Source: Squalus acanthias
Taxonomy: Eukaryota
DNA: 64,000 nucleotides
NCBI GenBank assembly: GCA_030390025.1
Contig: JASTWF010000033.1
Location: forward strand, 2,668,001-2,732,000
Direction of reading: 5' to 3'
The position numbers were made by a program, and so were the translations under genes. Below, piece by piece: positions 2,391 to 63,290 of the stretch; the stretch's first letter is position 1, and the number at the start of each line of letters is the position of its first letter. The notes under the pieces are model-generated. The model did not search any database and had not been told where the DNA came from. It was given only the letters and a program-made list of their open reading frames with translations.

Positions 2391-3291
2391 TTAACTTGGT
2401 GGCGATTGTGATCCTGTCCCGAGGAAAGTGTGTTCTCTCCAAATGTATCACTCGTTATCTGGTGGGAATGGCAGCGGCCGATCTACTGGTCGTTATCTCT
2501 GAGCCCATATTGGGCTGGATTGCTGCGATTTATTTCCCACATTCATTCCTGAGAATTACTCCCGTGTGTAGTTTTATTGACTTCATGTATTTTGCAACCA
2601 CCGAGACTTCTGTCTGGCTGACAGTCGCTTTCACCTTTGATCGGTTTGTGGCCATTTGTTGTGAGAAGCTGAAAACAAAATATTGCACCGAGAAAACGGC
2701 GGCTGTGGTTATCGGAACAGTGAGTGTGCTGGGCTGTTTAGAGTCTGTCCCCTGGTACTTAATCTATGAACCTTACGATATAATTGATAATATTCCCTGG
2801 TGTTGTAACAATAAACCGACCTTCTCAACTTCCCCCGCATGGGCAGCATTTGAGTTGATTCACCGCATTTTAACCCCTTGTGTCCCTTTCTTTCTAATTA
2901 TTCTACTCAATGTTCTGACGATCAGACGTATTTTTGAGTCTAGTAGAGTCCACAAGGGACTGCGGCGCCGCAGCGATGGAGAGAATCTAAAAGACACAGA
3001 GATGGAGAACCGAAGGAAATCCATGTTTTACTCTTCAGTATATCCGGCAGTTTTATACTGTTATTGTTGACACTGGTTGTATATTACATCTATCAGCGAA
3101 TCACAAAAGTGTAGTACTATTCTCCCACTGACCCTCTTTATGTCACAGAATTCACATCAGGAAAGCTTCAGATGGTCAGTTCCTGCACCAACACGTGTAT
3201 TTATGTCCTGACACAGACTAAATTCAGAGAGAAGCTGAAGTACGCGATAAAATACCCACTCAATGTAATTGTTAAATTAGATAAATCATAG
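2391..3291 (+). pseudogene. GPR139/GPR142-like class A GPCR, exon 2, pseudogenised (exon 1 lies upstream of the window)
   Basis: Acceptor TCTCTTACAG ends at 2390. The frame reads VNLVAIVILSRGKC...AAADL...FTFDRFVAIC...ENRRKS. A 1-nt frameshift occurs at about 3026, after which the shifted frame gives LLFSISGSFILL...SSCTNTCIYVLTQTKFRE, with an in-frame TAG at 3112-3114 and the terminal TAG at 3289-3291. Confidence 0.9.
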
Positions 3292-3769
3292 AAAGCGCTG
3301 ATGGGTATCAAGCACGAGAACTGAATCCCATTTCATACTTCATTCCTTCACTCCACTATGGGCCGAACGTACATTTTATATTTGCAGCATGGAGCCCTGA
3401 AATTACATTAATTCTGATTATGTTATATTTTACTTATGATCGATCTATTGATGCGGGACTCGATCTGCAGATGACACATGAATTTTTGCTCAAAATGGCG
3501 GCACTAAACAGTTCAACTGGCCTTCCAATAAATGGCTGCCCTGCACCGAAAGCAAACTGGGCAAACCCGCCGATCACTGTCGCCGCTGTGGGCCTGATCA
3601 TATTGGGAGCAATGCACATGAATGGAGTTAGAGGGAGAGAACAACCAAAATATATGTGCAGATAGAAAGATAGAGAGATAGGTGACACACTGGAGGCCCC
3701 CAGAGCATGCTGGGGCCCAATATCCCAATGTCTGTCTCCTGTTTTATCTATCTATCGCTCTCCATTTCG

Positions 3770-4410
3770 GCCCCTGCATTTCTCCTCTCTAAAAATCTGT
3801 TTCGCAGTTTAACCCCTCTCCCCATCTCTGTTCCTGATTATTATCTCTCTCCCTCCCTCCAGGTCTCTCTCTCCAACTCTGCCCCTCTGTCTCTCTCTCT
3901 CCATTTCTCTCCCTCTCTATCTATGTCCCTCTTTCTGTCTGTCTATCTCTCTCTCTCCATGTTTCTCCCTATCTATGCCTGTAATCTGTCTTTTTCCCTA
4001 TCCATGGCTGTCTCTCTGCATCTCTCTCCCCACGTGTGTCTATGTGTTTTATTCTCGCTCCCGCGCTGTGTCTGTCTCTGTTTCGCTCTCCCTCTCTTTT
4101 GAATAACAGAGTATAACTTGTGTAACAGAGTGATAGAGGGAGAAGTGTAGAAAGAGTTGGAGATGTAGAGAGGCAGAGACGAGAGTTAAATTGGACGATC
4201 AGGGAATACTGTTGGAAAATTAATTTAGTGTTCTTCGCAGCTTTTCTGCCCTATTTCAACTAAACAATCTTTCAATCTCAGTGATACAGAGGGAGATAGA
4301 AAAAGGTAGAGAGAGAAATGGAGATGTGGGAACAGACAACTGAGGATGTAGAAAGCGATAAGGACAGAGCGGTACGGGGAGAGAGATGGAGATTCAGAGA
4401 GGGAGAGGCG
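3770..4410. repeat. Low-complexity (CT)-rich tract followed by (GA)-rich tract
   Basis: Degenerate TCTC/CTCT runs at 3770-4100 and AGAG-rich sequence at 4130-4410. Confidence 0.7.
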
Positions 4411-4619
4411 GATTTTACATTGGACGCTCAGAAGAACACTCTAAAATTTCAACACCGGGACCCTCGCAGCCTGTACCCCTGAGCTACATCCCCATTTGTC
4501 CTTCAATATGTTCTTCCATCCAGCATATCGCAGACCTTCACTTTTATTCTTTTGTCCCATTCCACAATCCTTTTTCTCATGACTCTGTACTTGTTTACAA
4601 ACGATTAAATCTCCAACTT

Positions 4620-5800: not shown

Positions 5801-6016
5801 GGACTCTTTCCTTGGTGTAAAGTTAGAACCAATTACCAACTCGCAGCACTCTGTTTAAACCGCACTTTTATTTTTCTCCAGATGCGGTTGGGGGCTGTCA
5901 CAGAGCTGAACTCCCGCTGGTTCTCTGTCCCTTCTTGTGCAGCTTTTTAGCTCCTGCTCTCCTGGAAGCTTACAAGGATAGAAACAGAAAGGTACACCAC
6001 CCTCACCGAACTCCAT

Positions 6017-6460
6017 CACTCACCAAACTCGCAGCTTAACACTCTGTTCCGATCTGCAATCCCTGACAAACTGCACACCAGCCTCCCTTATTTATACTGC
6101 TGTGATTTAAATAAGTGAGCTCTCTGGCAGTTACAGAACCAAATTAGAGCAGTTAATTAATTAATTACTCTCAGCTGCTCTCCAGCACAGAGCTTGCTTA
6201 GCCCTGCCCAAGCCTGGAAGAAACTTAAAACTTGAAACAGTAAATTTAAATGTAAGTTAAATGCTAATTGCAGCACACATGACCAGATTTTATTAAAAAA
6301 AGAGATTAACCTTTAAGATTCACTCCCTCACTCAGCAACCTCGCAGTTTAACACTCGGTTCCGATCTGAACTCCATGACAAACTGCACTATAGCCTCCCT
6401 TATTTAAACTGCTGTGATTTAAATAAGTGAGCTTTCTGGCAGTTTCAGAACCAGATTACA
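6017..6460. repeat. Direct repeat of about 135 bp, two copies (about 6017-6148 and 6329-6460)
   Basis: Both copies contain CTCGCAG..TAACACTC.GTTCCGATCTG...GACAAACTGCAC...GCCTCCCTTATTTA.ACTGCTGTGATTTAAATAAGTGAGCT.TCTGGCAGTT.CAGAACCA. Confidence 0.85.
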
Positions 6461-8319: not shown

Positions 8320-9115
8320 GTAATGAATCAGACACAGTGGAATCAATATCTGGTGAATTCGACAAATATACTTTCGGGAATTAGAAAATTATGAATCAGA
8401 CACTGAAATTCGACAAGTCAAATAGAAGCATTAATGAATCAGACACTGGTGAATAAAACATTGCACGCTCAGACAATTAACATTCAAGCAATAATAAATC
8501 AAACTGTCGGAAAACAAAATCTGGAAATGTAGAGAATTAAACATTAACAAATAACGAAGCGTACAGTGGGGAATAAGAAAAGCTGGGCAATTAAAGAATG
8601 ACAAATCGGGTAAAGAGGAATTAGAAATTGGTAAATGAAAAAAACTGGGCAATTGCTCAAATACAAATCAGACAATGATGATTCAGACAGGGCCAATCAA
8701 ACACTGGAGCAAAAGGCAATCGAATGTTTGATTATCAGCAATCAGAAAATAGGGTTTTAGACAATTAGAAATCAGGAAATAATGAATCAGATACTGAGGA
8801 ATGAAAAACTGGAGAAATAGTCAACAAAACGTCAGATAATGACGATTCAGACATTGAGGAATCAGTGCCTGGAAAACTGAAGAATTAAAAATATCGGAGG
8901 ATGATTCCGACCCTCAGGAATCAAAACCAGAGAATTGAACAAATACATTCTGGAAATCATGAGGCAGATACTGGGGAACGGTAAACTGGAGAATTCGACA
9001 ATTAAAACATCGGCGATAATGGATCAGACACTTGAGAATAAAAATTACGCAACCAGACAAGTATTGATCGAGAAATGACGATTCCTACACTCGGAATAGA
9101 AAAACTGGAAAACTA
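8320..9115. repeat. Old degenerate minisatellite, period about 59 bp
   Basis: Recurring AATGAATCAGACACT...GAAT.AAAACTGGAGAATTCGACAA motif at about 8322, 8390, 8433, 8781, 8838, 8899, 8958, 9018 and 9074. Confidence 0.7.
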
Positions 9116-11790: not shown

Positions 11791-12879
11791 ACCACTGTTG
11801 GTCGTCGGCCAGTCGTTTTAGAGACTGACCAGTTTTCATTCTAAGGGGATTGAAAGTTCATAATCTACCCACATGCCAACATTCTGTGTAACGTGCATGA
11901 ATGGAAAATAGGACCTCTAACCTGCTTCTTTCGTGGTGCTTCCACTTACCCATAAACAACGACCACCGGGAGAGGTGTCGCTGCGATTTCAATTAATTCC
12001 TCTTTCGGGGAAAAGGGCATGGAAGAGTGAAATGATCGTCCACTTGCATAGAATTTCGTATTGTATGCACTCTGCTCCTCAGGAGGACATGCAATTATTG
12101 ATGTAGATAATGCTGAAGTGCTATTGCAGCGGGAGTTGACGGAGATCAGCATGTGGATATTCTGGAGATGAAAATCCGCTGGTTTTTGACAGTGGTGACC
12201 CGTTGCCTCCAGTCTACTCCCGCTACTTGGGGATATTCCACTGAGACTGATGTTCCGCAGGGCCTTGTTCGAAGGGAAGGCGCCAATACATATGGCGGGA
12301 GCAGGAACGGTCATTTAGACACTTCCGGTCCTCTGAAATAATGGAGCAGCTGCAATGAGTACAGACCAGCCCAGAGCTCTCCTGGCAGAGGTCTACATCA
12401 CGACCTACCTTGACAATCCTCATCAGCTCATTAAATTACATTTGAGTCTGCAGTGCCATGACGGGTTGGAGGAGGTGTCTCTAACGCATGCGTCGTCCAC
12501 CAAAGTAAAATCTTCTTAGGACATTTGCTTGTGTCAGCAATTACTCCAACTCACGTTCAGTGAAATTTGCAGACATACTTCTTTCTCTCTTTTGCCATGT
12601 CAGATTCTCCCAGTTTACTTTCTGTTATCCCGTAGCTCCTGCCCAGATATTGTAGTTGACCAATCAATATTCAGATCAGCCGGTCTCTGAAAACACCGGT
12701 AGGGCAGCAGCAATGCTGGCGGGAGGAAGAAGCCATCGATTGAAATCCTCCAGTTCACTTGGATTTTAAAAAGCTCATGTCCATCAGTCATCCTGGGCCT
12801 AATACCTGTCCACAGAGCCTTTCCAAATTCAAACAAAGTGATCTTGATTGTAAAGCTCGAGATATTTCTTCAGATATTT

Positions 12880-13778
12880 TTATTGAAATAATTTCCCATT
12901 TAGTGAAAACAGATATTTCATCCCACTCTTCAGCTCCTCTCTGAATTTATTCTGAGTTAGTCCATAGATACACGTGTTTGTACATGAACAAAGAAGCTGC
13001 AGCATGAATCCAACCTGCTGAACCCTGTACACCGGTGTAATGAGATATTTGTCTGTATAATTATAGTTTTCCACTGGCCACATTATTGAATGCACTACAT
13101 ATACCATCCATAAGAGTATAAAATTGCCAGATAGAGCGAACAGCAATATCATGGATTTTCTCCGGTTCTCCATCTCTCGGTCATTCTGATTCTCACTGTT
13201 GCTCCGGAGTCCCCTGCGGACTCTATTTGCTGCTAAAATGTGTCTGACCGTTAGAGTATTGAACAACAGAATTACAAAGATCGGCAATAAAGGGGTTAAA
13301 ATACTGTCAATCCACTCATATGTCCTCCACAAGGGCGTAGTACCGAAGTTTGTCTTTGGAACACAATACCACGGAACTTGGTCAATTATAAAGTAAGGCT
13401 GGTATATAAAGTAAAAGGGGACACTTCTAACACAGCTCACCAGGCACACGGCTGCGATAACCACAGTCGCAGCTCTCTGAGTGCAATATTTTGCTTTGAG
13501 CTTCTGACAGCAAATGGCTATAAATCGATCAAAGGTGAAAGCGACCGTAAACCATACCGAACAGTTAATGGATGCAATGCACAGAACAGTTAATAGAGAG
13601 CACACAGGAGTGATGAACAAGAAACTAACAGGAAAATACATATTATTAATGCGATTCAGAATTACGTCAGTGACAACCACCGTCAGATCGGCCGCTGCCA
13701 TTCCCACCAGGTAGCGAGTGATGCATTTGGAGAGACCGCACTTTCCTCGGGACAGGATCACAATGGCCACCAAGTTAA
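12880..13778 (-). CDS. GPR139/GPR142-like orphan class A GPCR, exon 2 (intact; joins exon 1 at 20707-20638 to give 322 aa)
   Basis: Acceptor TTTCTTACAG lies immediately upstream on the minus strand (CAG = 13781-13779). The 899-nt exon is open to TAA at 12880. Motifs NLVAIVIL, AAADL, FTFDRFIAIC, LTPLLP, ENRRKS, FILLW and NTCIY are present. 70+899 = 969 nt, in frame. Confidence 0.93.
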
Positions 13779-15042
13779 CTGTAAGAAATACGGATAAAAT
13801 AAAGGACCTTCGACTTTGCAAACTCTTCAGTTTAGCAGAACCTCGTGTGTTAATTACAGCCTGGTTGCTATCTGCCGTTGGGAAAGGAATTTTTCACTCG
13901 TAGACGCGCATTTCTTTTCATATTATGAAAGTAACCAACAAATTGCTAAAATCAGGAAATAGAGAAACGGGAATATTTTTTTTAAATGAGCTCGATAAAA
14001 TTCACTGCAGACCAAGACAGATTAACTTCAAATGGACTGTACAAATAATGTTAATAAGTAAAATGCCTAAAGACTGTGATGATTACAGTGAAAAGCAATA
14101 ACAATTAATTACACAAAGTTATAATAACTTGAGTGGATAAGAAAATATTTTATTTGAAATGACTAGATTATTGTGACTTGTCAGTGATGTGAAATAAAAA
14201 ATAAAGCCACAACATCAATAACGAACTATAAGATTATCGTGTTGGGGAATGAAATGAAACAAAATAAATTCATAAACAATTGCCGAGTTAAATAAGAGGA
14301 GTGCCGTTACCGAGAGTAAAATTATTAACGTTTGCGAGATTACACTAAAGGCAAGATATAAAGCATCAAAAGCCAAGAATGTATTCAGAGATGAGCATTA
14401 TGTAAGAGTCAGCAGTACAGAATCAATAATCAATTGAACGTTGATGTTAAAAAATTTATAATAACGTTTTGGAAAGCTACACGCACAGGGACAAATAAAG
14501 CAACAGTAACAAATAATAATTTGAGACAAGAAGTAACATTAAAAGCAATAGAAATATCGTGGAATTGTGAAATTCTTATATGTAGGAAGTGTAAAAAAAT
14601 ACAAACAACAGAGAATCAAAGAGAAAATGCTGCAAACACTCAGCAGGCCGGGCAGTTTGGTGGACAGAGGAGAGGAGGCAAAGTGTGTGCTGCAGAGCCG
14701 GGATGGTGGGAAAGATTGTCTGACAGGTAATCAAACATCAATGAACTGCGGGAACAGTGACAGAAATCTAAAGAAATGAAATTCAATAAAGAATCAGCAG
14801 CTCACAGTGACGAGACAAATGAAACAGGAATATCGGTAAAGATGTTGCAAAGAACAATACATTCCACAAGTTTAGACAATGAACACAGTGATACATTAAT
14901 TAAAGAAAAGCGTTTAAAAAAATAAAAAGTGGCATATTGATTTGAGTGGTTGCAAGAAAGTAGCAATAGATCAGAAACAGCAAATACAAATTATGAAAAC
15001 ATAGTATTCTGAAATTATAACAAAATCAACAATGATTTCAGG

Positions 15043-18000
15043 CATAGAAACATGGAAACATAGAAGATAAGAGCAGGAGTAGGCCATTCGGCCCCTCGAG
15101 CCTGCTCCAACATTCAATGAGATCATGGCTGATCATCCAAATTCAGTACCCTGTCCCTGCTTTCTCCCCATATCCCTTGATCCCCTTAGCCTTAAGAAAT
15201 ATATTTAACTCCTTCTTGAATATATTTAATGAATTGAATTCAATGGTCTTCTGTGGAAGGGAATTCCACAGCTTCACCACTCTCTGGGTGAAGAAATTCC
15301 TCCTCATCTTAGTCCTAAATGGCTTCCCCCTTATCTTTAGACTGTGACCCCTGGTTCTGGACTGCCCCGCCATCGGGAACATCCTTCCTGCATCTAGTCT
15401 GTCTAGTCCTGTTAGAATTTTTTAAGTTTCAATGAGATCCCCTCTCATTCTTCTAAACTCTAGCGAATACAAGCTCAATCGATCCAATCTCTCTTCATAC
15501 GAAATTCCTGCCATCCCAGCTATCAGTCTGGTGAATCTTCGCTGCACTCCCTCCATGGCAAGAACTTCGTTCCTCAGATAAGGCGACCAAAACTGCATAC
15601 AATACTCAAGCTTTGGTCTTACCAAGGCCCTGTACAACTGCAGCAAGACATCCTTGCTCCTGTACTCGAATCCTCTCGCTATGAAGGCCAACATACCTTT
15701 TGGCTTCTTAACCGCCTTCTGCACCTGCATGCTTACCTTTAACGACTGGTGCACAAGGACACCCAGGTCTCGTTGCACTTCCCATTTTCCCAATCTTTTG
15801 CCGTTCAGATAATAATCTGCCTTCCTGTTTTTGCCACCAAAGTGGATAACCTCCCATTTATCAACATTATACTGCATCTGCCATGCTTCTGCCCAATCAC
15901 CTAACCTGTCCAAATCATACTGGAGTTTCTCTGCATCCTCCGCACAGCACACACGCCCACCCAGCTTTATGTCATCTTCAAACTTGGAGATATTACATCT
16001 AGCTCCCTCGTCTAGATCATTAATATATATTGTGAATAACTGGGGCCCTAGCACCGATCCCTGCGGTCCCCCACTAGTCACTGCCTACCACTCGGAAAAT
16101 GACCCATTTATTCCAACTCGGTGCTTCCTGTCTTCCAACCAGTTCTCTATCCAAGACAGTACATTACCCCCAATCCCATGTGCTTTAAATTTGCACGCTA
16201 ATCTCTTATGCGGGACCTTATCGAAAGCCATCTGAAAGTCCAAATACACCATATCCAATGGTTCAACTTATCTGTTCTACTAGTTACATCCTCAAAAATT
16301 CCAGTAGATTAGTCAAGCATGATTTACCTTTTTTAAATCTATGTTGACTTTGTCCGATCCTGTCACTGTTTTTCAAGTGCTCTGCTATTACATCTTTTAT
16401 AATGGACTCCAGCATTTTCCCAAATATCCATGTCAAGGCTTACCGATCTATAATTCGCCGTTTTCTCTCTACCACCTTTTTTAAATAGTGGGGTTACATT
16501 AACTATTCTCCAATCCATGGGAACAGTTCCAGAATCTATAAAATTTTGGAAGATGACCAGCAATGCATTTACTATTTCAAGGGCCACATCCTTAAGTACC
16601 CTAGGATGTAAATTATCAGGCCCACCGGTTTTATCGGCCTTCAATCCTGTCAATTACACTCACACCATTTCCCTCCAAATACTGATTTCATTCAGTTCCT
16701 CCCTCTCATTAGAACCTATGTTCCCTGACATCTCTGGGAGGTTATTTGTGTCCTCCTTTTTGAAGACAGAAGCAATGTATGTATTTAATAGATCAGCCAT
16801 TTCTTTGTTCCCCATTATAAATGCCCCTCATTCTGACTGCAAGGGACCTACACTTGACATCACCAATCTTTTTTTCTTCTCTTATATATAGAAGCTTTTA
16901 CAGTCAGTTTTTATGTTCCCTGCAAGCTAACTCTCATACTCTACTTTCCCCCTCTTAATTAATCCCTTTGTCCTCCTTTGCTGAATCCTAAACTGCTCCC
17001 AATCCTCAGGTTTGCTGCTTTTTCTGGCCAATGTATATGTCCTCTCCTTGGATCTTATGATATCCCTAATTTCCCTTGTTAGCCACGTTTGATTCACCTT
17101 TTTTGTTTTATTTTTATGCCAAACAGGGATGAACAAATTCTGCAGTTCATCCATGCGATCGTTAAATGTTTGCCATTGCCTATCCACCGTCAGCTCTTTA
17201 AGTAACGTTCCCCAATCTATCGTAGCCAACTCGCGCCTCATACCATCATAGTTTCCTTTATTTAACTTCAGGACCTTAGTCTCTGAGTCAACTACTTCAC
17301 TCTCCATCTTAATGAAGAATTCTATCATATTATGATCGCTCCTCCCCAAGGGGGCCTCTCACAACAGGATTGCTAATTAATCCTTTCTTGTTACATAATA
17401 CCCAGTCCAAGATGGCCTGATCTCTAGTTGATTCCTCGAAATATTGGTCCAGGTAACCACCCGTATACTCTCTAGGAATATCTCCTCCACAGTATTTTTA
17501 CTAATTTGGTTAGCCCAATCTATATGTAGATTAAAGTCACCCATGATAACTGCTGTGCCCTTATTGCACTCGTATCTAATTTCCCGTTCAATGCCATCCC
17601 CAAACTCAGCATTACTGTTTGACGGTCTGTATAAAACTCCCACTAACATTTTCTTCCCCTTGGTTTTTCTCAGCTCTACCCATACCGATTCCACATCATA
17701 AGACCTAATATCCTTCCTTACTATTGTGTTAATCTCCTCTTTAACCAGCAATGCTACACCACCTCCTTTTCCTTTTTGCCTGTCCTTCCTGAATATTGAA
17801 GACCCCTGGATGTTGAATTCCCAGCCTTAGTCACCCTGGAGCCATGTCTCCATCTTCCCAATTATATCATATCCGTTTACATCTATTTGCGCAGCTAATT
17901 CATCCACCTTATTGCGAATGCTCCTTGCATTAAGACACAGAGCCTTCAGGCTTATTTTTTAAACACTCTTAGACCATTTAGAATTATTGCTTACTGTGGC

Positions 18001-19501
18001 CATGTTTGATTTACACCCTTGATTTCTCTGCCTTCCACTTTTGCTTTTCTCCTTCCTGTCTTTTGTTTCTATCCTTGCTTCCCTTTCCTATGTCTCCCTG
18101 CACAATTTCCCAATCCCCTGCCATTTTTGTTTAAACCCTCCCCAACAGCACGAGCAAACACTCTCCCTCGGACATCGGTCTCGGTCCTGCCCAGGTGCAA
18201 ACCGTCCAGTTTGTACTGTTCCCACCTCCCGCAGAACCGGTTCCAATGTCCCAGGAATTTGAATCACTCCCCCTTGCACCATTCTTCTAGCCACGTATGC
18301 AGCTGAAATATCCTTATATTTCTACTCTGCTTAGTACGTGGCACTGGTAGCAATCCTGACATTACTTCCTTTGAGGTCCTATTTTTTAATTTACCTCCTA
18401 ACACCCAATATTCAGCTTTTAGGACATCATGCCGTTTTTTACCTGTATCGTTGGTACCTATCTGCACCACGACAACTGGCTGTTCACCATCACCCTCCAG
18501 GATGCCCTGCAACAGCTCCAAGAAATCCTTGATCCTTGCCCCAGGGAGGCAACATACCATCTGGAATCTCGTTTTCGGCCACAGAAACGGCTATCTATTC
18601 CCCTTACAATAGAATGCCCATATCACTATAGCTCTCCCACTCTTTTTCCTCCCCTCCTGTGCTGCAGAACCACCCATGGTGCCAGGATGTTGGTTGCTGC
18701 TGCCTTCCCACGATAGGCCATCCCCCTCAACAATAAATAAAGTGGTATATCTGTTTGAGAGGGGGATGGGCACAGGGAACACCTGCACTACCTGCCTGTG
18801 CCTACTACTCTGCCTGGCGGTAACCCATTCCCTTCCTGCCTGTGCAGCCTTTACCTGCGGTGTGACCAAATCATTAAGTGTGATATTCTCGACGTCCTCA
18901 GCATCGCGAATGCTCCAGTATGCTCCAGCGCCGCAATGCGGTCTGCCAGTAGCTGCAGCTGGATACACTTCCTGCACACATGGCAGTCAGGGACTCTTGA
19001 AGTGTCCCTGATTTCCCACATCACGCAGGAGGAGCATTCCACGGGGCCGAGCTGTGCTGCCAAGACTTACCATTTAACTAATTTAAATTAAATTGCATCA
19101 AATCAATACCACCAATTACACTACAAGAAAATGTTATACTCAAGGGCCCTTGTTTACTCGCTCTCCCCGCTACACAACAGAGAACTTAGAAACTATAACC
19201 ACAAAATTAAGAACATCTAAACTTGATAAACTTTTAAACTTAACTGTCAAACTATAGAGTGGTATAAATACTCACTAGGCCGTACTCACCCTGCTGGTTC
19301 CTCTTGCCCGCGTCAATTTTTGAATCGTGACGTGGCTGTGGAAAGCCGCCGCCGGTCTGTGAGATTGGTAAACCAATGTAAAAAACCCGCGAAAGTGAGT
19401 TTAAATACTTACTGTTCTCTCCTGTTGCTCCCGACACCGGCCTCTGTAAAAAAGCCCGCGAAAGTGAGTTTAAATACTCACTGATCTCTCCTGTTGCTCC
19501 G
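15043..19501 (-). mobile_element. Near full-length CR1 LINE (5' UTR, ORF1 zinc-finger/esterase, ORF2 EN-RT, 3' tail), disrupted, inside the GPCR intron
   Basis: RT 15422..16081 (PQGSVLGPQLFTIYINDL), EN 17377..17751 (IMGDFN) and 16927..17349 (SDHNM), ORF1 18264..19063. The 3' tail reads CATAGAAACAT on the + strand. Possible 5-bp TSD GGCAT at 15041-15045 and 19502-19506. Confidence 0.93.
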
Positions 19502-20637
19502 GGCATTATATCAAAAGGAAAAAATAAAATAATAACATGAAATAATGAATTGAGATGTCACATTAAAAGTGAAATTCTAGCCGTATTGATCGTGTATTAT
19601 CAGATGAAAACTGACTTCAATACAAAGGAAACCAGCCTTGCGAATATCGGGAGGCCGATCCGCCACCCTCAGCTTTGCGACCCAGTCGAAGTTGAATTTC
19701 ACCCCACAGTATTAATCGTGTGCAATGCACACTGGCCCAATGGACGGAGATATTAAATTAAACATTATTTATGTTAAGGTTTGTGTTTCTGCAAAATTTT
19801 ACACGAATTTACAAGCCGAAAAATTAAGAATATTTTTTCAGTGCCATAATGTTTGTTCAGCAGATAATACCCTATTACTCCCCAGTTACATCTAGTCCAA
19901 CAAGGCCTAACTTTTAATGGGGTATTTAAAAGCGATATTAACACGGAAAACTCCAAGTTTTTCTGAGTTTCAATTTCACTGATTACACTGTTTGCCGGTT
20001 GTGGGGGCCGGGCACAGCGCCGCCTGCGTCGAAGCAGTGAATGACAGCGCAAGTTCAGGATTTCTGCGATTGATGCGCATGAGCTACATCCTGACCTTGC
20101 TTTCAGTTTCAAAGGAGTAATGACAGCAGACGCTGATAGTTGGCTATATTACTCACTACAAATTCTGGGGCGATACCACAGATTCTCCGCGGTACACCCG
20201 GTGCAGCGACTTTCTAGTTCCATGGCAAGTATTGGTAGAAACCAGCAAGTAGAAGTTTATTAATTACACTACACAACTGACATTATAACACGCTGCCCTG
20301 TGAATGAAGAAATATGTGATCACGACTGGAATGGGTTCGATCTGGTTATTCTTGCAGCCAGTTGAAAAACCGGATTACTTTCAGTGTGACATAATTCAGT
20401 ATAAATGCATTGAATTCGAACGATTTCACTTTCAAAGGGCTCAACCATATAAGCAAAAACGGGAACGCGAGTACAGCGAGAATGATTTCTTGGCCTCTAC
20501 ATTTCAATGATCTAGCTGAATAGAAGATTGTGTAGAAAACAAATTGGGACAAAGCTACCACAGCACTGGCGACGCTGCAGGAGCGGTCATCATTACATAG
20601 CGTTTTACACCATTAATAGCAGGCTTTAATATCTTAC

Positions 20638-20707
20638 CGGTGACTCCAAAGGTTGCAAGCACAGGGTAGTAAAGGCGTTCGATCTGATATAATACGGGAT
20701 ATCCCAT
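20638..20707 (-). CDS. GPR139/GPR142-like GPCR, exon 1 (MGYPVLYQIERLYYPVLATFGVT), phase-1 intron
   Basis: ATG at 20707, 70 nt long, followed by donor GTAAG (20637-20633). Homologous 70-nt exons occur at 38601 and 61233. Confidence 0.9.
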
Positions 20708-21129
20708 TTTCTGCGAGAAACAGCGATATCTGTGGTGCCGAAAAGAAGGATGCAAATAACCAAATATTACGATTAGTTCAAAGGAATCAGACTTATTCCC
20801 GAGGAAAACTTCCACGGAGCCAATTCTCTGGAATATACCATCAGTGATATTAGTTACATTCGGTTTAACAACAAGATTCAGTAAACCATTTAGACTCCTC
20901 TTTTATTATGCAATGGAATATATTATTATCAGTATTCAAACACATAAGATTTATTATTGTTTTCTATTTATTCACAATAAATAAAAATAAAACTCTGTTC
21001 CCGAAGCACTAGTGTTGAATTATGGGGAAGTCTTATTTATAGGCTGCATTTTAATTATCACATGGGCAATCCTGTCAATTCTGTAGTTACTAATCCAGAA
21101 TTTGCACTGAAAGTAGTGTAATTGCAGAA

Positions 21130-36059: not shown

Positions 36060-38531
36060 TTTCAAATAAAACTGTTGGACTATAACCTGGTGTTGTGCGA
36101 CCTCTCAACTAAGGTTGAAGGCCATGGAATTGAAGGCGAATTATTGACCTGTTTCGGAAATTGGCTGAGCGCCAGGAGACAGAGATTGGGGGTAATGGGC
36201 CGTTCATCTAATTGGCAGGATGTAACTAGTGATGTCCCGCAGGGATCTGTGTTGTGGCTTAAACTATAGACTAATTATCAAAGACTCAGACGATGAGATG
36301 GAATGCCACATATCCTAATTTGCTGCTGAAACAGAAAGAGACGGCATTTTAGGCATTGCAGGTGAAAGCATAACATTACAGAGAGATATTGATAGATTAA
36401 GTGCATGGCAAAACTGTGGCAAATGTATTTCAATGTCAGCAAAAGTGAGGTCATCCACTGTGGACCTGAAAAGGATAGAACAGGGTACTTTCTAAATGGC
36501 GAAAAGCGAAAAACAGAGCAGGTCCAAAGTAAGTTGGGGCTCCAGAGACATAGATCATTAAATTGCTATAAACAGTTACAAAAAAACTAATCAGAAATGC
36601 GAATGGAATGCTGGTCTTTATATCTCGAGCAATAGAATACAAGGGGGGAGAAGTAATGCTACAGCTATAAACAGCCCTGGTTAGACCACACCTGCAGTAC
36701 TGTGAGCAGTTCTGGGCACCACACCTTAGGAAGGATATATTGACATTGGTGGGAGGGCAGCGTATATTTACAAGCTTGATAACCAGACACCAGGGGTTAA
36801 ATTACGAGGAGAGATTACACAGGCTAGGGTTTTATTCCCTGAAGTTTAGAAGGTTAAAGGTTGATTTCATCGAAGTTTTCAAGATAATAAGGCGAACAAA
36901 TATTGTAGGTAGGTTTGGGGAGTCCAGGTCCAGGTGCATGGTCTGAAAATTAGAGCCAGAAATTTCAGCAGTGAACTTAGGAAACTCCTCTACACACAAA
37001 GTGTGGTAGTAGATTGGAACTCCTCGCAAATGGCAATTCATACTAGATAAATGGTTAATTTTAAATCTGACATTGATAGATTTTTGTTAACCAAAGTTAT
37101 TAAGGGATATGGGCCAACGGCGGGTATATGGAGTTAGGTCGTAGATCAGCCATGATCTCATTGAACGGTGGAACAGGCTCTAGGGGTAAATGGCCTACTC
37201 CTGTTCCTCTGTTCCGAAGATATTACGGACTATATTTTTAAATAGATTTTAATTGTGTTTAGTTTAACATATAGATTAAGGAAATGGAAGATTCACCGAA
37301 AGGGACTCAGGATCTGACAGGGACATAAACATGAGGAGGATGTCCAACAATTAAAGCTCACCCAATCTGGCGACTCCATAATAACACGATTAAATTATAT
37401 TTTCTATTTATACTTGTACTGGACGTTTCCGAGAGCTCTCTCCGTTGAATCATTCATTCCACGGCATTTCGCTACCCTCCTCAATTGCCCTATCTATCAC
37501 TCTTCTCTCAAACTTTCTTTACTCGTTTTGGTCCCTTTCCCAATGTCCATTTTCACATCCGAATCGATTCCAACATCCGGTAGCTGCCACACTTCACCAT
37601 CCCGTGTTCCTATTCTCAGCCTTAATTTGTTAAACCGCAATATATCTGTGGAAGGCTTTATTCTTTCTACAGATCATCCAATCTCCACCTGTTCCCCCGC
37701 ACGGTTCACGTCATCTGCCATGCATGGAACACAGATAATAGAATGTTTATTTCAGCAAACCTCACGATAATTGAAATTTCTTGGCTTTAATTATAAAGTG
37801 CTGCGTTAGGTGGCGGGTTTTTTCAATTAATAAAACGCCAACATCACCGCTGCTCCTTTTAATCTTCAGATCAATAGAAGTGCTCCTGATTGCAACAGGT
37901 ACAGTGCAAACTGATATAACAGAACCTCAAAACATGTCATTTTTACAATGAATTCCAGTGACAGTCAGTGAATCCATCCACACTGAAGCAGAGAAGGAGA
38001 TGTGAAAGAGTCAGCAACAGACTCAGTTCAGTTGACACACCTCTGAAGCGGCGTCTGATAAAGATACAGTGAAATAATGTTTCATAACAATGATAACCAA
38101 TACATGCATTGGAATCCTAGTAAACTGAACTATGTTATTGGTGAGGGTGAACATTACGCTGCCACCTTGTAATGCAGAGCTCGTAAAGTATTTCATTAGT
38201 CATCAATGCAAACACATTTATGAAATAATATTCCAGATTATTTCCACAAAATGAAATTGATTACAGGCTCTTAGCCCATATACCTGATTCCAACACATCC
38301 CATACAGATATATTCCAGGAGCAATGCCCGGGTTGCATAAACAAAGCCCATTACAGTTATAATTCAGCTCGTACAAGAACGAAAGAGCAAATACTGAATG
38401 CAATCCATGATTCAACCGATAGAACAAAACAGGCGGCTGTGCAAAATCTGTTAGGAGAAACATATATTTGCCAGGCACAGCAGCACAGTTAACACAGATT
38501 TACACCATTAATAGCTGAGATAAATGCTTAC

Positions 38532-38601
38532 CAGGAGCTCCAAATGCTGAAAGAAGAGGATAGTATATCTATTCTACCTGATAGGTTAATGGATATCCCA
38601 T
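38532..38601 (-). pseudogene. GPCR exon 1 with premature stop (MGYPLTYQVE*IYYPLLSAFGAP); no matching exon 2 seen
   Basis: ATG at 38601, TAG at 38571-38569, donor GTAAG at 38531-38527. The paralogous intron continues to about 37420. Confidence 0.88.
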
Positions 38602-38755
38602 TTCCGTGAGAAGCAGCGACTTCTGTTGGAGTAGAACCCACAGCTCCGGCAGTCACTCGGAGCTGATCCATTCCAATGGGTACTGATTTATACAGGGGAT
38701 AAATCTCCACTGACACGGTTATACCCCTGATCATTGCTTTTAGTTACAGTCACTT
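38602..38755 (-). promoter_or_regulatory. Conserved GPCR proximal promoter/5' UTR with TATA box
   Basis: TATAAAT at 38692-38686 (minus). The block is closely similar to 61080-61232. Confidence 0.65.
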
Positions 38756-39249
38756 GAACAAACACATTACATCAGCAGCTTTGACTCTGATGTAAAAAAT
38801 GTGGTGAATAGAACACAAACATCTCAAAGTCCAGGACATCATCTTAATCAGACCTCTCCCGAGAATAAATCTGCAATTTATGCTCATACAGGACTGATCC
38901 AATAATAAGCGGCTTCAGTTACAGTTTTCATGTAATTGTACTGACCATGCTCACTCCTGTCGATTCATTGATAAATGTTGCCGGTGATTTCTAAGCAGTG
39001 TGCATCGTCGAACTCAGGGGCACAAGCCGAAACGTTTCACTCCCTGCAGGTCCACAGTTATAATATGAATAATGAGTCTCTGACGTGAGGATAGTCAAAT
39101 GATACGTTCAGGATTGCAGCCTACAAATGTTGCCGCTTGAAAGTATACTGGATGAAATTAGGGGATGGATGCTGAGAGTGCCCCATTACCATACCTCTCT
39201 CCGCTATTCTCCTGCAGATCTTATTCCTTTTTTTCTAAGTTGGTCCATC

Positions 39250-41340
39250 ATAAGAACATAAGAACATCAAAGTTAGCAGCAGGAGTAGAACATACGGTCC
39301 CTCCAGCTTGATCATCCATTCAATCAGATCATGACTGATCTTCTACATCAACTCCACTTTCCTGCTCTATCCCCATATCCCTTGATTCACTTAGTGCCCA
39401 GAGAACTATCGAGCTCAGTCTTTAATACACTCAAAGACTGAGCATCAACAACCCAATAAAATGAAAACTGTGTATCCCTGAGCTGAGATAATGACCCACA
39501 TTGATCTCGATTAAAATGCAGATGCTTTTCTCATCCACCTCAGCCCGTTGCCATTGGATACCTCACCAATGCCTCTCTCATCTCCAATGTCAAGTCCCCC
39601 AATAACCTCAACGCAGCCATTCTTCCTCCATCCTCCTTCATTGCAACTCATCCAAAACTCTGCTATCTGTCTTTAGCCGGCACCAAATCCGGCGAGACCA
39701 TCCCCCTAGACTTGTCTCACAGTCCTCCAATGCCTAAATGTAATATTCTCATCCTTTGGTTTCAGTCCCTCCCTGGCCTCAACCCTCCCCATTTTACCGC
39801 ACTTCTCAAATCTGCTATAAACCCACCCGTGAGCTCGGCATACAGCTGACAATGGCCTCTCTCGGGGATACTGCCCTCACTTGGTTCCAGTCTTACCTAT
39901 CACGTCATAGCCAGAGCATCTGTAGCAAAGGATTCTAGTCCTAGCCCCGCACCGTGATCTTTGGAGAAACTGAACATTCGACACTTGCCTATCCTCCTCT
40001 TCATAAGCTGCATGCTGCCATTAGACAACATCATCGGCAGGAATGGGGGCAGCTTCCTTTGGCGATATCTTCCGCAGATATGCTATCAGCGTTTTCCTGT
40101 GTGCTAACAACACCCAGCTCACGCTCTCTCGACCCTCCACTACCTCTGTGTTGTTTGCCTGCATGTGCAACCATCTGTTTGGTTAAGCCTCAAATTCCTC
40201 CAATTAAACAGGGGGAAGTACGAAGCCGTAATCTTTCTATCCGCTACAATCTCCATACTCCTGTCTCGGATTCCATTCCCCTCCCTGGCAGTTGTCTCAG
40301 GCTGAATGTGACTTTTCGCAACCTCTGAGCAGTATTCAACAATAAACTGGGCTTCCGGCCCCAAACCTCTCCAACACAAAAGACGCCAACTCCCGCCACT
40401 ATAACATTGTTGGGCTCTGCCCCTGCCTCCGTCTATCTGGCACTAAAACCCTCAATCTAGCGATTGTCACTTCCAGACTTTCCGCCCTCTCCTGCAATCC
40501 GTGGCCTCTTCATTCCACTGACACTGACCTCTTTTCTTGAGACTTCACTTGATTGCTTCCATTTTTACCTGCCTGATCTAAGCCAGACAATCTCCAGCAA
40601 TGGCTTCGCTTCAGGCTCCAGCATCGTTATTTTTGATGAATCCCCACGATCTATCTTTGTTCCTTCTTTTTCCTCATTTACATGCTTCCATTTGGCGATG
40701 TCATCCACAGATATGAAATCAGCTTTTTAATGTATGCAGACAACATCGGCTTTCCCGTTACATCATCTATTTGGGTCACTCATTCCACTGTTGCTCTGTT
40801 GCCAGACTAGTTGTTCAACATCCTGATTCTGACTCATTAGCATTGTCCGCCTATACCCTCCCTCAAATCATCAACTCATGAAACGTGCTTCTGTCACATC
40901 CAGAAGACTGTCCAATTTGCACCTGGCAGACCTTCCATTCTCCACCGTCCTTAAACTTCAGTTCATCCAAAACATTGCAGCCCGTAACCCATCCCACACT
41001 AAGTTTCTCCACCAACCACCCTCTCCTTGCTGACCTAAATTGGATTTAGATCCTACGCTTTACTTACTTCTTCCGCAAGTTTTTCCTTCATTACCTACCC
41101 TTTCCCTATCTTTGTCACCTCCCTCAGCCCTACAATCAGTCTCCCGAATGTTCGTTTTCTCGCCAATCCCATTTTCCCCAGAATTTTGTGCAGTGCCTTT
41201 AGCCATTTAGCCGTCATGCAACAGAATTCGCTCCTCCAGCCCTCTCCGCCTTTAAGCCCGTCCAAAAACCCGACCTTTTGAACTGGGTTTATGGGAGTCC
41301 AACTTCGTCCCACCTATGTTCCACCCTTCGAGAAAGCACG
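39250..41340. mobile_element. CR1 3' tail (39250-39450, minus) followed by degraded L2-type fragments (plus)
   Basis: CATAAGAACATAAGAAC tail. L2-like TALTWFQSYLS in ORF 39756..39938. Confidence 0.6.
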
Positions 41341-57400: not shown

Positions 57401-59515
57401 GAAGAGCGGATATAAAGAGCGGAGAATCTGCTGAATTGTGCGGATATAAAGAGCGGATAATCTGCTGAGAGGAGCGGATATAAAGATCGGAGAATCTGCA
57501 GAGAGGAGCGGATATAAAGAGCGGAGAATCTGCTGAGAGGAGCGGATATAAAGAGCGGAGAATCTGCTGAAAGGAGCGGATATAAAGATCGGAGAATCTG
57601 CAGAGAGGAGCGGATATAAAGAGCGGGAGAATCTGCTGAATGGAGCGGATATAAAGAGCGGAGAATCTGCTGAATGGAGCGGATATAAAGAGCGGAGAAT
57701 CTGCTGAATGGAGCGGATATAAAGAGCGGGAGAATCTGCTGAATGGAGCGGATATAAATAGCGGGAAAATCTGTTGAGGAGCGGATATAAAGAGCGGAGA
57801 ATCTGCTGAGAGGAGCGGATATAAAGAGCGGGAGAATCTGCTGAGAGGAGCGGATGTAAAGAGCGGGAGAATCTGCGGAGAGGAGCGGATATAAAGAGCG
57901 GAGAATCTGCTGAGCGGAGCGGATATAAAGAGCGGAGAATCTGCTGAGAGGAGCGGATATAAAGAGCGGAGAATCTGCTGAGCGGAGCGGATATAAAGAG
58001 CGGGAGAATCTGCTGAAAGGAGCGGATATGAAGAGTGGGAGAATCTGCGGAGAGGAGCGGATATAAAGAGCGGAGAATCAGCTGAGAGGAGCGGATATAA
58101 AGAGCGGAGAATCTGCTGAGCGGCGCGGATATAAAGAGCGGGAGAATCTGCTGAATGGTGCGGATATAAAGAGCGGGAGAATCTGCTGAGAGGAGCGGAT
58201 ATAAAGAGCGGAGAATCTGCTGAGAGGAGCGGATATAAAGTGCGGAGAATCTGCTGAGAGGAGCGGATATAAAGAGTGGGAGAATCTGCTGAGAGGAGCG
58301 GATATAAAGAGCGGAGAATCTGCTGAGAGGAGCGGATATAAAGAGCGGAGAATCTGCTGAGAGGAGCGGATATAAAGAGCGGAGAATCTGCTGAGAGGAG
58401 CGGATATAAAGAGCGGGAGAATCTGCTGAATGGAGCGGATATAAAGAGCGGAGAATCTGCTGAGAGGAGCGGATATAAAGAGCGGGAGAATCTGCTGAAT
58501 GGTGCGGATATAAAGTGCGGAGAATCTGCTGAGAGGAGCGGATATAAGGAGCGGAGAATCTGCTGAGAGGAGCGGATATAAAGAGCGGGAGAATCTGCTG
58601 AATGGAGCGGATATAAAGAGCGGGAGAATCTGCTGAGTGGAGCGGATATAAAGAGCGGAGAATCTGCTGAATGGAGCGGATATAAATAGCGGGAAAATCT
58701 GTTGAATGGAGCGGATATAAAGAGCGGAGAATCTGCTGAATGGAGCGGATATAAAGAGCGGAGAATCTGCTGAATGGAGCGGATATAAAGAGCGGGAGAA
58801 TCTGCTTAGAGGAGCGGATATAAAGAGCGGTGTATCTGCTGAGAGGAGCGGATATAAAGAGCCGAGAATCTGCTGAATGGACCTGATATAAAGAGCGGGA
58901 ACATCTGCTGAGAGGGGCGGATATAAAGAGCGGGAGAATCTGCTGAGAGGAGCGGATATAAAGAGCGGAGAATCTGCTGAATGGAGCGGATATAAAGAGC
59001 GGAGAATCTGCTGAGAGGAGCGGATATAAAGAGCGGGAGAATCTGCTGAGAGGAGCGGATATAAAGAGCAGGAGAATCTGCTGAAAGGAGCGGATATAAA
59101 GAGTGGGAGAATCTGCTGAATGGGGCGGATATAAAGAGCAGGAGAATCTGCTGAGAGGAGCGGATATAAAGAGCGGAGAATCTGCTGAATGGGGCGGATA
59201 TAAAGAGCGGAGAATCTGCTGAGAGGAGCGGATATAAAGAGCGGGAGAATCTGCTGAGAGGAGCGGATATAAAGAGCGGAGAATCTGCTGAGAGGAGCGG
59301 ATATAAAGAGCGGAGAATCTGCTGAATGGAGCGGATATAAAGAGCGGAGAATCTGCTGAGAGGAGCGGATATAAAGAGCGGGAGAATCTGCTGAGAGGAG
59401 CGGATATAAAGAGCGGAGAATCTGCTGAGATGAGCGGCTATAAAGAGCGGGAGAATCTGCTGAGAGGAGCGGATATAAAGAGCGGATAATCTGCTGAGAG
59501 GAGCGGATATAAAGA
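51436..59515. repeat. 34/35-bp satellite array, about 8.1 kb (roughly 235 units)
   Basis: Unit AGAATCTGCTGAGAGGAGCGGATATAAAGAGCGG(G), with common variant GAATGG for GAGAGG. Confidence 0.98.
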
Positions 59516-59559: not shown

Positions 59560-60590
59560 TGTATGTTTCCATTATGCTCGGAGTTTGAGATTTAAAACAG
59601 GTGTCATCAGCTTCAATGTAAACGTTTGTCCAATATCTGCGAATGAAGGGTCCAGTGGGAAGTATGTTGATGAGCAAGTAGAGAGAGCGAGGATAGATCC
59701 TTGGGAGCCATTTATGGCAACGGGGATGTGGGGTGTGGGAGAAACGCTATTGCTGGAGATCCTCCGGCTCCAATCAAATTGGTAAACGTGGAAACAAGTA
59801 AGGGAAGTCCCACCAAAAGAGAGGCCAGTGACAGAGGAAAGAAGAGGAGACGGATTGGACGAGAGACTGAGAGACTGGAGCTGATCAATGCATGATTGAG
59901 GGTTTCGGTGCCAGATCAGGGACAAGTAGTCATCAGAGGTTACAAAACATCATATTGAGCCTGAGACAACAGGCAGGGCTGAAAATGGAATCGGCGTCAT
60001 GCGTTTGGAGTTTGTGGTGGGGCAGATATGATACCTTCCGCCTTCCTCATGTTTAATTGCTGCAAATCGCAGCTCATGCATAACTGTGGTAGTCTGATAA
60101 CACAGATGTAGTGGAGGTTGGAGAGAGATGGTGGAGCATGTACATGAGGATGAGGGCGAGGAAAGGGGCAAGATTGGAAAGTTCATAGACTGGAGAGTGA
60201 ACGGTGCTGGAGTGAGAAGAGAATCCATTGCTTAAGATGCTCTGGTTTCCATAACATCGGTAAGATTGGGACCAAGAGAGGACAGTCCCAGCGAAATAGG
60301 CCAGTTTCAGAGGTGTGAAGAGAACACGGGTGTGTTGGCTGCAGGTTTGGAGGAGAGGGTGGAGATGGCGAGGGATGAGGCCATGGAGGGTTTTAAACTC
60401 AAGCATCAGAATTTAAACTTAATGCTTTGGGGGGATTGAGAGTCAATGCGGCTCAGTGAGGGCGAGCGGGACTTTGGTAGGTTGGAGATGTGCGGCAGAG
60501 TGCTGGTTCGGTTGACATTGATGGAAGGTGGAGGTTGGGTGGCCGGCCAAGAGTGAGCTGGAGGAAACGTGTCATGAGGTGGAACAGTTC
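59560..60590 (-). mobile_element. Degraded L2-type LINE fragments
   Basis: The reverse complement resembles the L2-like pieces at 39500-41340 and 27540-28270, e.g. GAGGGATGAGGCCATGGAGGGTTTTAAA. Confidence 0.55.
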
Positions 60591-61079
60591 TAATTTTGCT
60601 CGACTTGCTATACCATGTAGAATAAACAGCTAAACATCTGCAGTAAAAAAGTAGAGAGAGGACTTTAAATGGGTCACTTTCCGTGTCCGTCCACTAATAT
60701 CGCCCACAGTAATTTCTAGGCTGCAATCCTGAAAATGGCCTTTAACTGTCCCTGTGCCAGGGACCGAAGCATCATTATTGCATTGGGTAACTACAGGGAC
60801 AGAGTCAAACGTGTCTGCTTGTTTCCCTGGATTCTGTGTACACTGCAGAGAAATAGCTAACATTTATAAATCGTTTGATAGCAGGAAACTTGGTCAATAC
60901 ATTTACATGAAAGCTGTAAATGAAGCCGCTCATTATTGCTGGATGAGTCCTGTATGGGGAGATCTTTCAGCCTTATTCCCGAAAGAGGGCTGATTAAGAT
61001 GTACTCATTGAGATGATTGTGTTGTATGCACCATATTGTTCACTTCGGACTCAATGGTCCTGATGTAATGTGATTGATC

Positions 61080-61232
61080 TAGTGCCTGTAACTAATATCA
61101 ATGATCAGGGGCATAACGGTGTCAGTGGAGATTAACCCCTTTATAAATCAGGGCTCATTGAAATGAATCAGCTCAGAGAGCCTGCCGGAGCTGTGGGTTC
61201 CACTCCAGCAGAAGTCGCTGCTTCTCACAGAA
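61080..61232 (+). promoter_or_regulatory. Conserved GPCR proximal promoter/5' UTR with TATA box
   Basis: TATAAAT at 61142-61148, about 85 bp upstream of the ATG. Paralogous to 38602-38755(-). Confidence 0.65.
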
Positions 61233-63290
61233 ATGGAATATCCAGTAATGCTTCAGATACAATTAATTTTCTATCCTGTGATTTCAGCCGCTGGAGTTCC
61301 TGGTAAGCCGTTATCTCAGCTGTCAATGCTGTAAATCGGTGTTAACTGTGCTGCTGTTCATGGTAATGTTTTTCTCCCTGCATGTTTTCCACTGCCGCCT
61401 GTTCTGTTCCAGCAGTTGAATGAGGGGATGTCTTCAGTCTCTGCTCTTGTGGTCTTGTCGGAGTTTCATTATATCTGTAATGATCGTTGTGTATCCAACC
61501 CTGGCATTGTTACTGGATCATTCCCTGTACTGAATGTATTGGAATCAGGTTAATCAATAGTCTGGGCGAAAAGCAGGTATCAGACCATCAGGAGCTGTTA
61601 ACAGTTTAGGTTTTGGGATTAACCTGTCCTGGAATATTTTTTCATAAATGTGATTTCAGTGATTGATAATGAGAGAGCTCACGGTTTCAGTGTTACAAGG
61701 AGGCAGCGCAATGTCCTCCCTCCCCAGTAACATGGTTCAGTTTAACTGGAATTTCAATGTGTGTGTTGGTTATCACTGTTTTGAAATATTATTTCACTGT
61801 GTGTGTTCCTGACCCCCATCAGAGGTCTGACGACTGAACTGAGTTTGCCGCTGACACCTTCACATCTCCTTCTCCTTCAGTGTGGATGGATTCACTGACT
61901 GTCACTGGACTTCAGTGTAAAATGTAATGTTTTGAGGTGATGTTGTTTCAATCTGCAATGTATCTGTGGGAATTAGCAGCCCTTCTATTGATCTGGAGAT
62001 TGTAGTAGCAGCGGTGAGGTTGCTGTTTTGTTAATTTAGCAACCCCGCCATCTAACGCTGCACTTTATAATTACAGGAGAAGGGACTTCATACATTGTAA
62101 GGACTGTCTGGCAGAGACATTCGATTCTGCTTATTGTATGCAATGCAAATCAATGTAGGTGAACAGGTGGAGACTTGTGTGATCTGTAGGAACAATAAAC
62201 TATTCACAGAGACGTCAGCATTGAACACAATGACTCTCAAAATGCAATCATTGAACACGGGGATAGTGAACAGAAAGCAGGCGCAGCATGTTAGGATTAA
62301 ATGAAAAAAAGCCATTGAGGAAGACATTGGAGACTCGCGGGAGAGCTAGAGAGGAGCGATCGAGAAAGAGTCTGAGAAGTAAAACTAGAGGGAGGGGTGA
62401 GGAAAGAGAGAGAGTGTTCGAGAGAGAGAGAGAGAGATTACAAAGGAAGCCATAAGATATACGGCACAGAAAAATGCCATTCGGCCCAACCAGTTCATGC
62501 TGGCATTTATGCTCGACTCGAGCCTCCTCCCGTCTTTACTCATCTAACTCTATCAGCTCCTGACTCTCCTCCAGCTGCCATATTTCCTTTTTCTTCTCCC
62601 ACTCCAAATCTCACTCACTGGCCCGACCTCCAGCTGCCTCCTCCCGTTAAGTGCCAGCCCCTGTCGGCTCTCTTAACCCAGAGCAAAAACCACCTTCACA
62701 TCACGTCTGTACCCAAACCCCGCCTGCCTTCACTCTGGAGCCCAAATCCGGTTTTATTACATTGGATTCTGACTCCCCAAAGCCCTGCTCCCTTCCACAC
62801 CGGCACTGCGCCGTCACTCCGCCCTTCCAGTGCATCCGGTGCTCACTTTATTCACTGTCTGTATCGAACTCCCAATTCATTCTCCATAAATGTGTTGCAA
62901 ACATTTCTCTGCCCGAAAGCGCTGCCCAGGTCCAGGAATCAGTTACCACCGTTCGATGCAGCAACAAAGCTGGAAATTTCAGCCCAGATGCTGTCAAACT
63001 GTTGACTTGGCTCCAGGTCTGATCACTAATTTCTCAGCTTCCCTTTTTCTCTCTTACAGTTAACTTGGTGGCGATTGTGATCCTGTCCCGAGGAAAGTGC
63101 GGTCTCTCCAAATGCATCACTCGCTACCTGGTGGGAATGGCAGCAGCCGATCTCCTGGTCGTCATGACTGATCCCATATTGAGGTCGTCTACCTGATATA
63201 TTTCCCAGATTCATTCCTGAACATTACTCCGCTGTATACTCTCACACTCTTCCTGATTTTTGCTACAACGATGGTTTATGTCTGGTTCAT
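61233..63290 (+). pseudogene. GPR139/GPR142-like GPCR pseudogene (exon 1 61233-61302; exon 2 from 63060, frameshifted and cut by a CR1)
   Basis: Exon 1 MEYPVMLQIQLIFYPVISAAGVP + GTAAG. Acceptor CTCTTACAG ends at 63059. Exon 2 reads VNLVAIVILSRGKCGLSKCITRYLVGMAAADLLVV, then TGA at 63194-63196 after a frameshift; the shifted frame continues IYFPDSFLNITP...VW until the CR1 tail at about 63288. Confidence 0.9.

Follow-up and report, generated by a model that had tools for sequence, protein, structure and literature searches.

Which receptors are encoded by the compact G-protein-coupled receptor (GPCR) genes on a 64-kb stretch of the Squalus acanthias genome (contig JASTWF010000033.1, positions 2,668,001 to 2,732,000; hereafter the window, meaning this whole stretch), and what might such receptors detect? 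Four gene units, termed A, B, C and D, lie in the window in the orientations +, -, -, +, and B alone is intact. Copy B is a class A (rhodopsin-like) GPCR, and it belongs to a real, large receptor repertoire that has been misnamed by automatic annotation. We consider it very probable that sharks and rays possess, in this repertoire, a large multigene family of class A GPCRs whose ligand pockets have diversified.

Four receptor gene units, one of them intact

The coding parts of the four units are as follows.
2391..3291, + strand: copy A exon 2, pseudogene, normal stop at 3289-3291 (Pfam 7tm_1 E 2e-20 on the 5' open part)
12880..13778, - strand: copy B exon 2, intact, 899 nt including the stop, from the inner half of transmembrane helix (TM) 1 to helix 8 (Pfam 7tm_1 E 1.2e-23)
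13779..20637, - strand: copy B phase-1 intron, 6.86 kb, GTAAG...TTACAG, with a decayed long interspersed nuclear element (LINE) at about 15156-17948 inside it
20638..20707, - strand: copy B coding exon 1, intact, 70 nt (23 codons plus 1 base)
38532..38601, - strand: copy C coding exon 1, 70 nt, GTAAG donor, in-frame TAG at codon 11, a gene relic
61233..61302, + strand: copy D coding exon 1, 70 nt, open, GTAAG donor
63060..63288, + strand: copy D exon 2, the 5' 229 nt only, then interrupted

The original prediction, made from the sequence of the window, had described a cluster of four paralogues of identical plan in these orientations, one intact and three dead. Profile searches bore out the cluster and its orientations, and the count stands, B being open and A, C and D broken. 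The identical plan was not recovered, as the window holds only three exon 1 matches (B, C and D) and three exon 2 matches (A, B and D), and the full two-exon plan is visible in B alone. Each coding exon 1 comprises 70 nt followed by GTAAG (B, 20707-20638; C, 38601-38532; D, 61233-61302), and exon 2 starts at the expected acceptor motif at 2391 (A), 13778 on the minus strand (B) and 63060 (D). The paralogy of A and B lies far above chance (tblastn E 2e-83). FTFDRF and ENRR, cited in the prediction as nearly invariant intracellular segments, were found in A and B, the only copies in the window to carry them, and SRGKCVLS was found in A.

Splicing of B in phase 1 yields an open coding sequence of 969 nt, corresponding to 322 amino acids, with 24 residues ahead of N1.50, NTCIY at 7.49-7.53 and V at 6.50. 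The short N-terminus, the NTCIY and the missing TM6 proline that had been predicted are thus confirmed for B; the last of them is not a family trait, and P6.50 is polymorphic, being present in 57 of 312 shark-type proteins (defined below). The product scored 84 bits against Pfam PF00001 (7tm_1; cut-off 30.5). At E<=0.1, its Pfam matches were limited to 7tm_1, Srx (E 7e-6) and one sub-threshold model, and the OR, V1R and T2R models gave no match to it. An AlphaFold2 model of the exon-2 part (mean pLDDT 85) contains seven helices with a partial TM1, helix 8 and a two-strand hairpin in extracellular loop (ECL) 2. The fold search with this model returned class A receptors at Z values of about 24-26, among which GPR139 was tied with many peptide receptors.

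In four sequencing runs guessed to be RNA, contigs of relatives at 80% likeness over 12800-20900 covered exon 2 in 4/4 and exon 1 in 0/4, and no splice joint occurred among the matches listed for the copy B region, which is evidence neither way. The full-length Logan proteins open with intron-like sequence and therefore do not demonstrate splicing. Exon 1 of copy C was considered as an alternative first exon for B; its phase fits, but it was rejected as coding owing to the in-frame stop. No TATAAA hexamer lies within about 250 nt before B, unlike C and D, both of which carry it 91 nt before the ATG.

A large receptor family across sharks and rays

Searches of protein clusters at E<=1e-20 gave 2235 clusters among 4006 candidates with B as the query and 1795 among 1988 with A. 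The best 120 matches were listed for each query, and the remainder include some non-shark relatives. Within these best 120, the two lists have one protein in common and the named matches are from sharks or rays throughout. At least 237 named relatives were collected from 21 elasmobranch species (four of them added from the later relatives search), with species labels transcribed by hand; among the matches listed, Heterodontus accounts for at least 63 and Heptranchias for at least 48. These counts are lower bounds, since the clusters were formed at 90% identity. Exactly 24 residues precede N1.50, as in B, in 109 of the 237 named models. Chimaeras were absent from the named matches listed, no search having been aimed at them. 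A metagenome scan gave 25 distant loci, mostly at 25-37% identity and none of them shark-type, which were not used.

Most of these proteins are called 'probable GPR139', and a few are called GPR15-like, GPR39-like or tachykinin receptor. Because the labels are mixed, the names must be automatic, and the RefSeq label 'GPR139' on shark and ray genes is misleading. We found no account of the shark and ray expansion in the literature, although subscription papers and some supplements may hold one; neither the zebra shark genome paper nor a review of GPR139 (PMC12208981) mentions it in the accessible parts.

Trees and counts were based on 341 of 412 aligned rows, kept at a core coverage of at least 85%, and no GPR139 or GPR142 sequence was among them. 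The shark-type set comprised 312 proteins, including 67 unnamed representatives placed by tree, 6 from Logan/JGI and 2 from the window. Copy B clustered with four Pristiophorus proteins (support 0.997) and copy A with Heptranchias, and the A-type and B-type subfamilies each contained both sharks and rays. Single-species clades reached 20 proteins (Heterodontus, support 0.96). The copy number by cluster searches is thus large, and together with the dead copies and the species-specific clades it agrees with the birth-and-death family that had been proposed. D2.50, D/E-R3.50, the C3.25-ECL2 cysteine pair, W6.48 and Y7.53 were found in B and in 301-310 of the 312 shark-type proteins.

Variable ligand face and conserved G-protein face

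Position numbers were set from motif anchors, and a class A consensus supplied the 34 predicted pocket positions and the 23 positions of the G-protein face. At these positions, the mean pairwise identity of the 312 shark-type proteins was 0.40 for the pocket and 0.83 for the G-protein face, with 0.54 for the core, and the corresponding values within Heterodontus were 0.45, 0.87 and 0.61. The 20 amphibian orthologues of a sister gene described below gave 0.96, 0.93 and 0.81. The contrast of a conserved G-protein face with a variable ligand face, inferred originally from the window, therefore extends to the family.

For pairs matched in depth at 80-85% core identity, the identity over 33 pocket positions was 0.67 among paralogues from the same species (238 pairs) and 0.97 among the amphibian proteins (81 pairs), so that the excess variation of the ligand face remains in an orthologue control. 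The pocket was less conserved than the core in 673 of 718 paralogue pairs (75-92% core identity) and in 0 of 190 amphibian pairs. Because the pocket gap persists in depth-matched pairs against the amphibian control, diversification of the ligands is well supported, as far as sequence can indicate it.

Between A and B, the ratio of nonsynonymous to synonymous substitution (dN/dS) was 0.31 for the inner half, 0.60 for the outer half and 0.15 for the G-protein face, and the synonymous rate in the pocket was saturated. Polar pocket residues typical of a subfamily persist, for example D/H at 5.42 and D at 3.37. A low proportion of synonymous differences hinted that gene conversion had homogenised exon 2 at its 5' end; this was rejected, as third positions differed in 6 of 29 versus 40 of 122 same-amino-acid codons (p=0.26).

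Relationship to GPR139 and to a single-copy sister gene

GPR139 and GPR142 are orphan receptors of class A that respond to L-Trp and L-Phe. GPR139 ranked first in 4/4 sequence searches of the PDB and is the nearest solved structure (7VUG; E 7.6e-8 with B, 8e-16 with the family profile and 2.6e-13 with the amphibian sister). B and human GPR139 are 20-23% identical in structural alignments (7VUI/7VUG). The accessible text of two papers places F3x33, H5x43, W6x48 and N7x38 (PMC5430874) and R6x51 (PMC8807744) in the Trp/Phe site of GPR139; the residues of B at these positions are I, D, W, F and Y, respectively. Only W6.48 is thus retained in B from the set F, H, W and N (1/4), and the combination of F3.33, W6.48 and N7.39 is seen in 3 of the 312 shark-type proteins. 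The C3.25 and ECL2 cysteines are present in shark-type proteins, but not in the aligned GPR139. The shark family has many copies, whereas GPR139 is one conserved gene, described in the accessible part of its review as strongly conserved in sequence across vertebrates (PMC12208981). Judged by these alignments, the shark-type family is not orthologous to GPR139 and does not fall within GPR139 proper.

The two have W6.48 and the lack of P7.50 in common; GPR139 has F7x50, according to the part of PMC8807744 that was available, and T occupies 7.50 in 287 of 312 shark-type proteins. The predicted substitution of NTCIY for NPxxY is therefore real in B, but the loss of the proline is not peculiar to the shark family. 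The missing 7.50 proline and the first rank of GPR139 in the PDB searches agree with a place for the family in the wider GPR139/GPR142 branch.

A HMMER search without the filter detected more distant relatives at 24-34% identity. The nearest, P0348, belongs to a set made up of 20 amphibian proteins, each from a different species, and one sturgeon protein (P0348, P0388-P0407). This set was sister to the shark-type clade in FastTree (0.93; 341 rows) and IQ-TREE (95/83; 33 chosen rows), and the shark-type clade itself was supported at 0.97 and 88/89, respectively. The gene gave one match per species, Xenopus tropicalis included, and the word-limited search that found the amphibian set gave no teleost or amniote match. 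The family is accordingly not lineage-specific in the narrow sense that had been suggested, since it is elasmobranch-wide and has a single-copy sister in amphibians and sturgeon.

The amphibian/sturgeon orphan is 28-34% identical to B and is likewise labelled 'probable GPR139' automatically. It has in common with the shark-type proteins a short N-terminus, the cysteine pair, the DR motif, W6.48 and N..Y in TM7; it differs in its one match per species, its near-invariant pocket (0.96), N2.50 in place of D, and P6.50 in every case. The amphibian pocket is nearly invariant and basic (R2.61, K6.51, K6.55, R6.59 and R7.35), and F3.33, W6.48, N7.39 and K6.51 are kept in 20/20 amphibian proteins.

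Other unnamed relatives were P0352, P0372, P0378, P0381, P0383, P0384, P0379, P0380 and P0386; most of them have R6.51, a DRNDY-like ECL3 motif and no W6.48, and these, including P0352, P0372 and P0384, may be GPR210 subtypes. Rinne et al. (2019, PMC6504862) described GPR210A/B of coelacanth, gar and fishes as orphan receptors close to GPR139/GPR142. They occupy the same tree neighbourhood as the shark family, the comparison being by description only, as GPR210 is defined by Ensembl ids. In the accessible part of that paper, the word 'shark' does not occur, amphibians are not listed for GPR210 and no expansion is reported. More remotely, the protostome MIP, FMRFamide and myosuppressin receptors are given as sister to GPR139/142, and the likely ancestral ligands as aromatic-ended peptides, in the available text of PMC8557429.

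Proposed origin and function

The findings above are consistent with one ancient orphan receptor of the GPR139/GPR142 branch having been duplicated repeatedly to give the shark and ray repertoire; amphibians and sturgeon would still carry the ancestral receptor as one conserved gene. The copies would have one downstream pathway in common, as suggested by the retention of DRF, the C3.25-ECL2 pair, W6.48, N7.49, Y7.53 and the G-protein face, and would bind differing ligands deep in the helix bundle. Their likeliest task would be the sensing of varied external or luminal chemicals by a chemosensory epithelium, be it of nose, taste, skin or gut cells. Because of the ancestry, the ligands are probably amino-acid or peptide-like.

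Vertebrate OR, TAAR, V1R/ORA, V2R and T2R and nematode srw families resemble the shark family in clustered birth and death, pseudogenes, a short N-terminus and a conserved inner with a variable outer face. Its ancestry is different. A precedent for a chemosensory family from a peptide-receptor branch is nematode srw (PMC3963977, in whose accessible part GPR139 is not mentioned). PMC11979771 gives about 32 V2Rs for the catshark, whose OR, ORA, TAAR and TARL families are reported as very small, and the class A chemoreceptor families of elasmobranchs are described there as very small too. The tiny size of those known in the catshark makes a sensory role attractive, which is not to say proven. From the sequence pattern, we regard a chemosensory role as evenly balanced. 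The wider proposal is more tentative and somewhat short of even: that sharks and rays possess an additional family of vertebrate chemoreceptors, each genome carrying dozens to hundreds of the genes, derived from a GPR139-like amino-acid or peptide receptor, possibly forming their main class A chemical-sense repertoire, and hidden under the automatic GPR139 name.

Several points weigh against a chemosensory reading. Immune or peptide-sensing roles give an identical sequence pattern, and immune and somatosensory GPCR families (FPR, MRGPR) display it. The pocket positions were taken from a class A consensus by motif numbering, not measured on the model, and the pairs of the depth-matched test are non-independent. 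Pocket positions in the shark-type set showed no significant excess of variation over other outer-TM positions (p 0.06-0.14); therefore the signal is one of the whole outer half. No dN/dS above 1 was seen in the only DNA pair compared, A/B (outer half 0.60), of which A is a pseudogene. The family genes are also not mentioned in the accessible main text of the catshark sensory-organ paper (PMC11979771).

The strongest alternative is an immune or barrier sensor family, similar to the formyl-peptide or Mas-related receptors, in which copies on leukocytes, skin or gut would detect peptides and metabolites of microbes or parasites. Under this reading, the clustering, the pseudogenes and the pocket pattern would be expected just the same. 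An ECL2 hairpin is typical of peptide receptors; the B model has one, and its top fold matches are peptide receptors. Chemokine-type and MRG families are fast-evolving and locally duplicated in other vertebrates, according to the accessible part of PMC6504862. However, among characterised receptors the closest relatives (GPR139 and the protostome W/Y/F-amide receptors) have neural or metabolic roles and are not chemoattractant receptors, and chemokine receptors score under GPR139 (E 3e-11 versus 8e-16). We consider this role rather unlikely.

Alternatively, the copies might sense diversified peptides of the animal itself (neuropeptide, reproductive or pheromonal) instead of environmental chemicals. 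The retention of F3.33, W6.48, N7.39 and a basic 6.51 in 20/20 proteins of the amphibian sister is consistent with such a role, but gene death in 3/4 units and species-specific bursts are unusual for receptors with dedicated endogenous ligands, and we know of no matching ligand family. Even with a branch ancestor that was probably activated by aromatic-ended peptides (PMC8557429, accessible part), this explanation appears improbable.

Least probable of all is a largely passive expansion, in which repeat-driven duplication in LINE- and satellite-rich regions is combined with selection on fold and coupling and drift of the outer half, as would suit the repeat-rich window, its three dead units of four, and the lack of a significant difference in variation between the pocket and other outer-TM positions, with no dN/dS above 1 for A/B, but hardly the hundreds of open full-length proteins across 21 species, the A-type and B-type subfamilies each with sharks and rays, the maintained subfamily-typical polar pocket residues or the dN/dS of 0.15 at the G-protein face.

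With at least 63 distinct members in one shark, a diversified pocket and a conserved signalling face, the family would rank among the largest elasmobranch receptor repertoires, and it would mean that a sensory or immune detector family had arisen anew in vertebrates. The single-copy amphibian sister, which Xenopus tropicalis possesses, offers a laboratory handle on the ancestral ligand.

Broken copies and surrounding repeats

The further features of the copies are listed below.
1352..1848, + strand: copy A, part of the intron, with homology to the C and D introns (nhmmer intron profile; blastn 71% to the D intron)
37564..38330, - strand: copy C, what remains of the intron, with homology to D and A
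38602..40689, - strand: copy C upstream region, homologous to the D upstream region (proximal 632 bp 73% identical)
59658..61232, + strand: copy D upstream region, inverted homologue of the C upstream region
63289..64000, - strand: LINE inside D exon 2, antisense to the gene, reaching the window end (blastn to LINE copies in the window)

Copy A carries a 1-nt loss near 3026, a premature TAG at 3112-3114 and a replacement of W6.48 by L. The profile search found no exon 1 of A in the window; this exon probably lies before the window start, because the A intron homology begins at 1352 with LINE sequence upstream of it. No exon 2 of copy C was found anywhere in the window. In copy D, a 1-nt loss in exon 2 near 63192 leads to a TGA at 63194-63196. 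C and D stand head to head, with about 2 kb of upstream homology common to both.

The window is rich in LINEs and satellites, of which the following were delimited.
15156-17948, 28672-29049, 41847-42065 and 63400-63975: older LINE copies
24201-27300, + strand: LINE, near full-length, broken, with endonuclease and reverse-transcriptase pieces, which we take to be CR1-like
43046-45780: satellite array between C and D, 42 bp x65
49478-51200: satellite array between C and D, about 30 bp x61
51449-59515: satellite array between C and D, 34 bp x234

The satellite arrays between C and D yield long spurious open reading frames. Kinship of the 34-bp and 42-bp arrays was rejected, as 241 of 500 shuffles scored as high, and a 26-bp array was searched for upstream of B, C or D and not found. 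Between copies A and B, there are direct local duplications (6010-6146 and 6322-6458) and a degenerate repeat (8407-9111). A 282-codon open stretch at 34839-35684 (+ strand) gave a weak GIY-YIG match just under the cut-off (E 2.6e-4) and is presumably a fragment of a Penelope-type retroelement.

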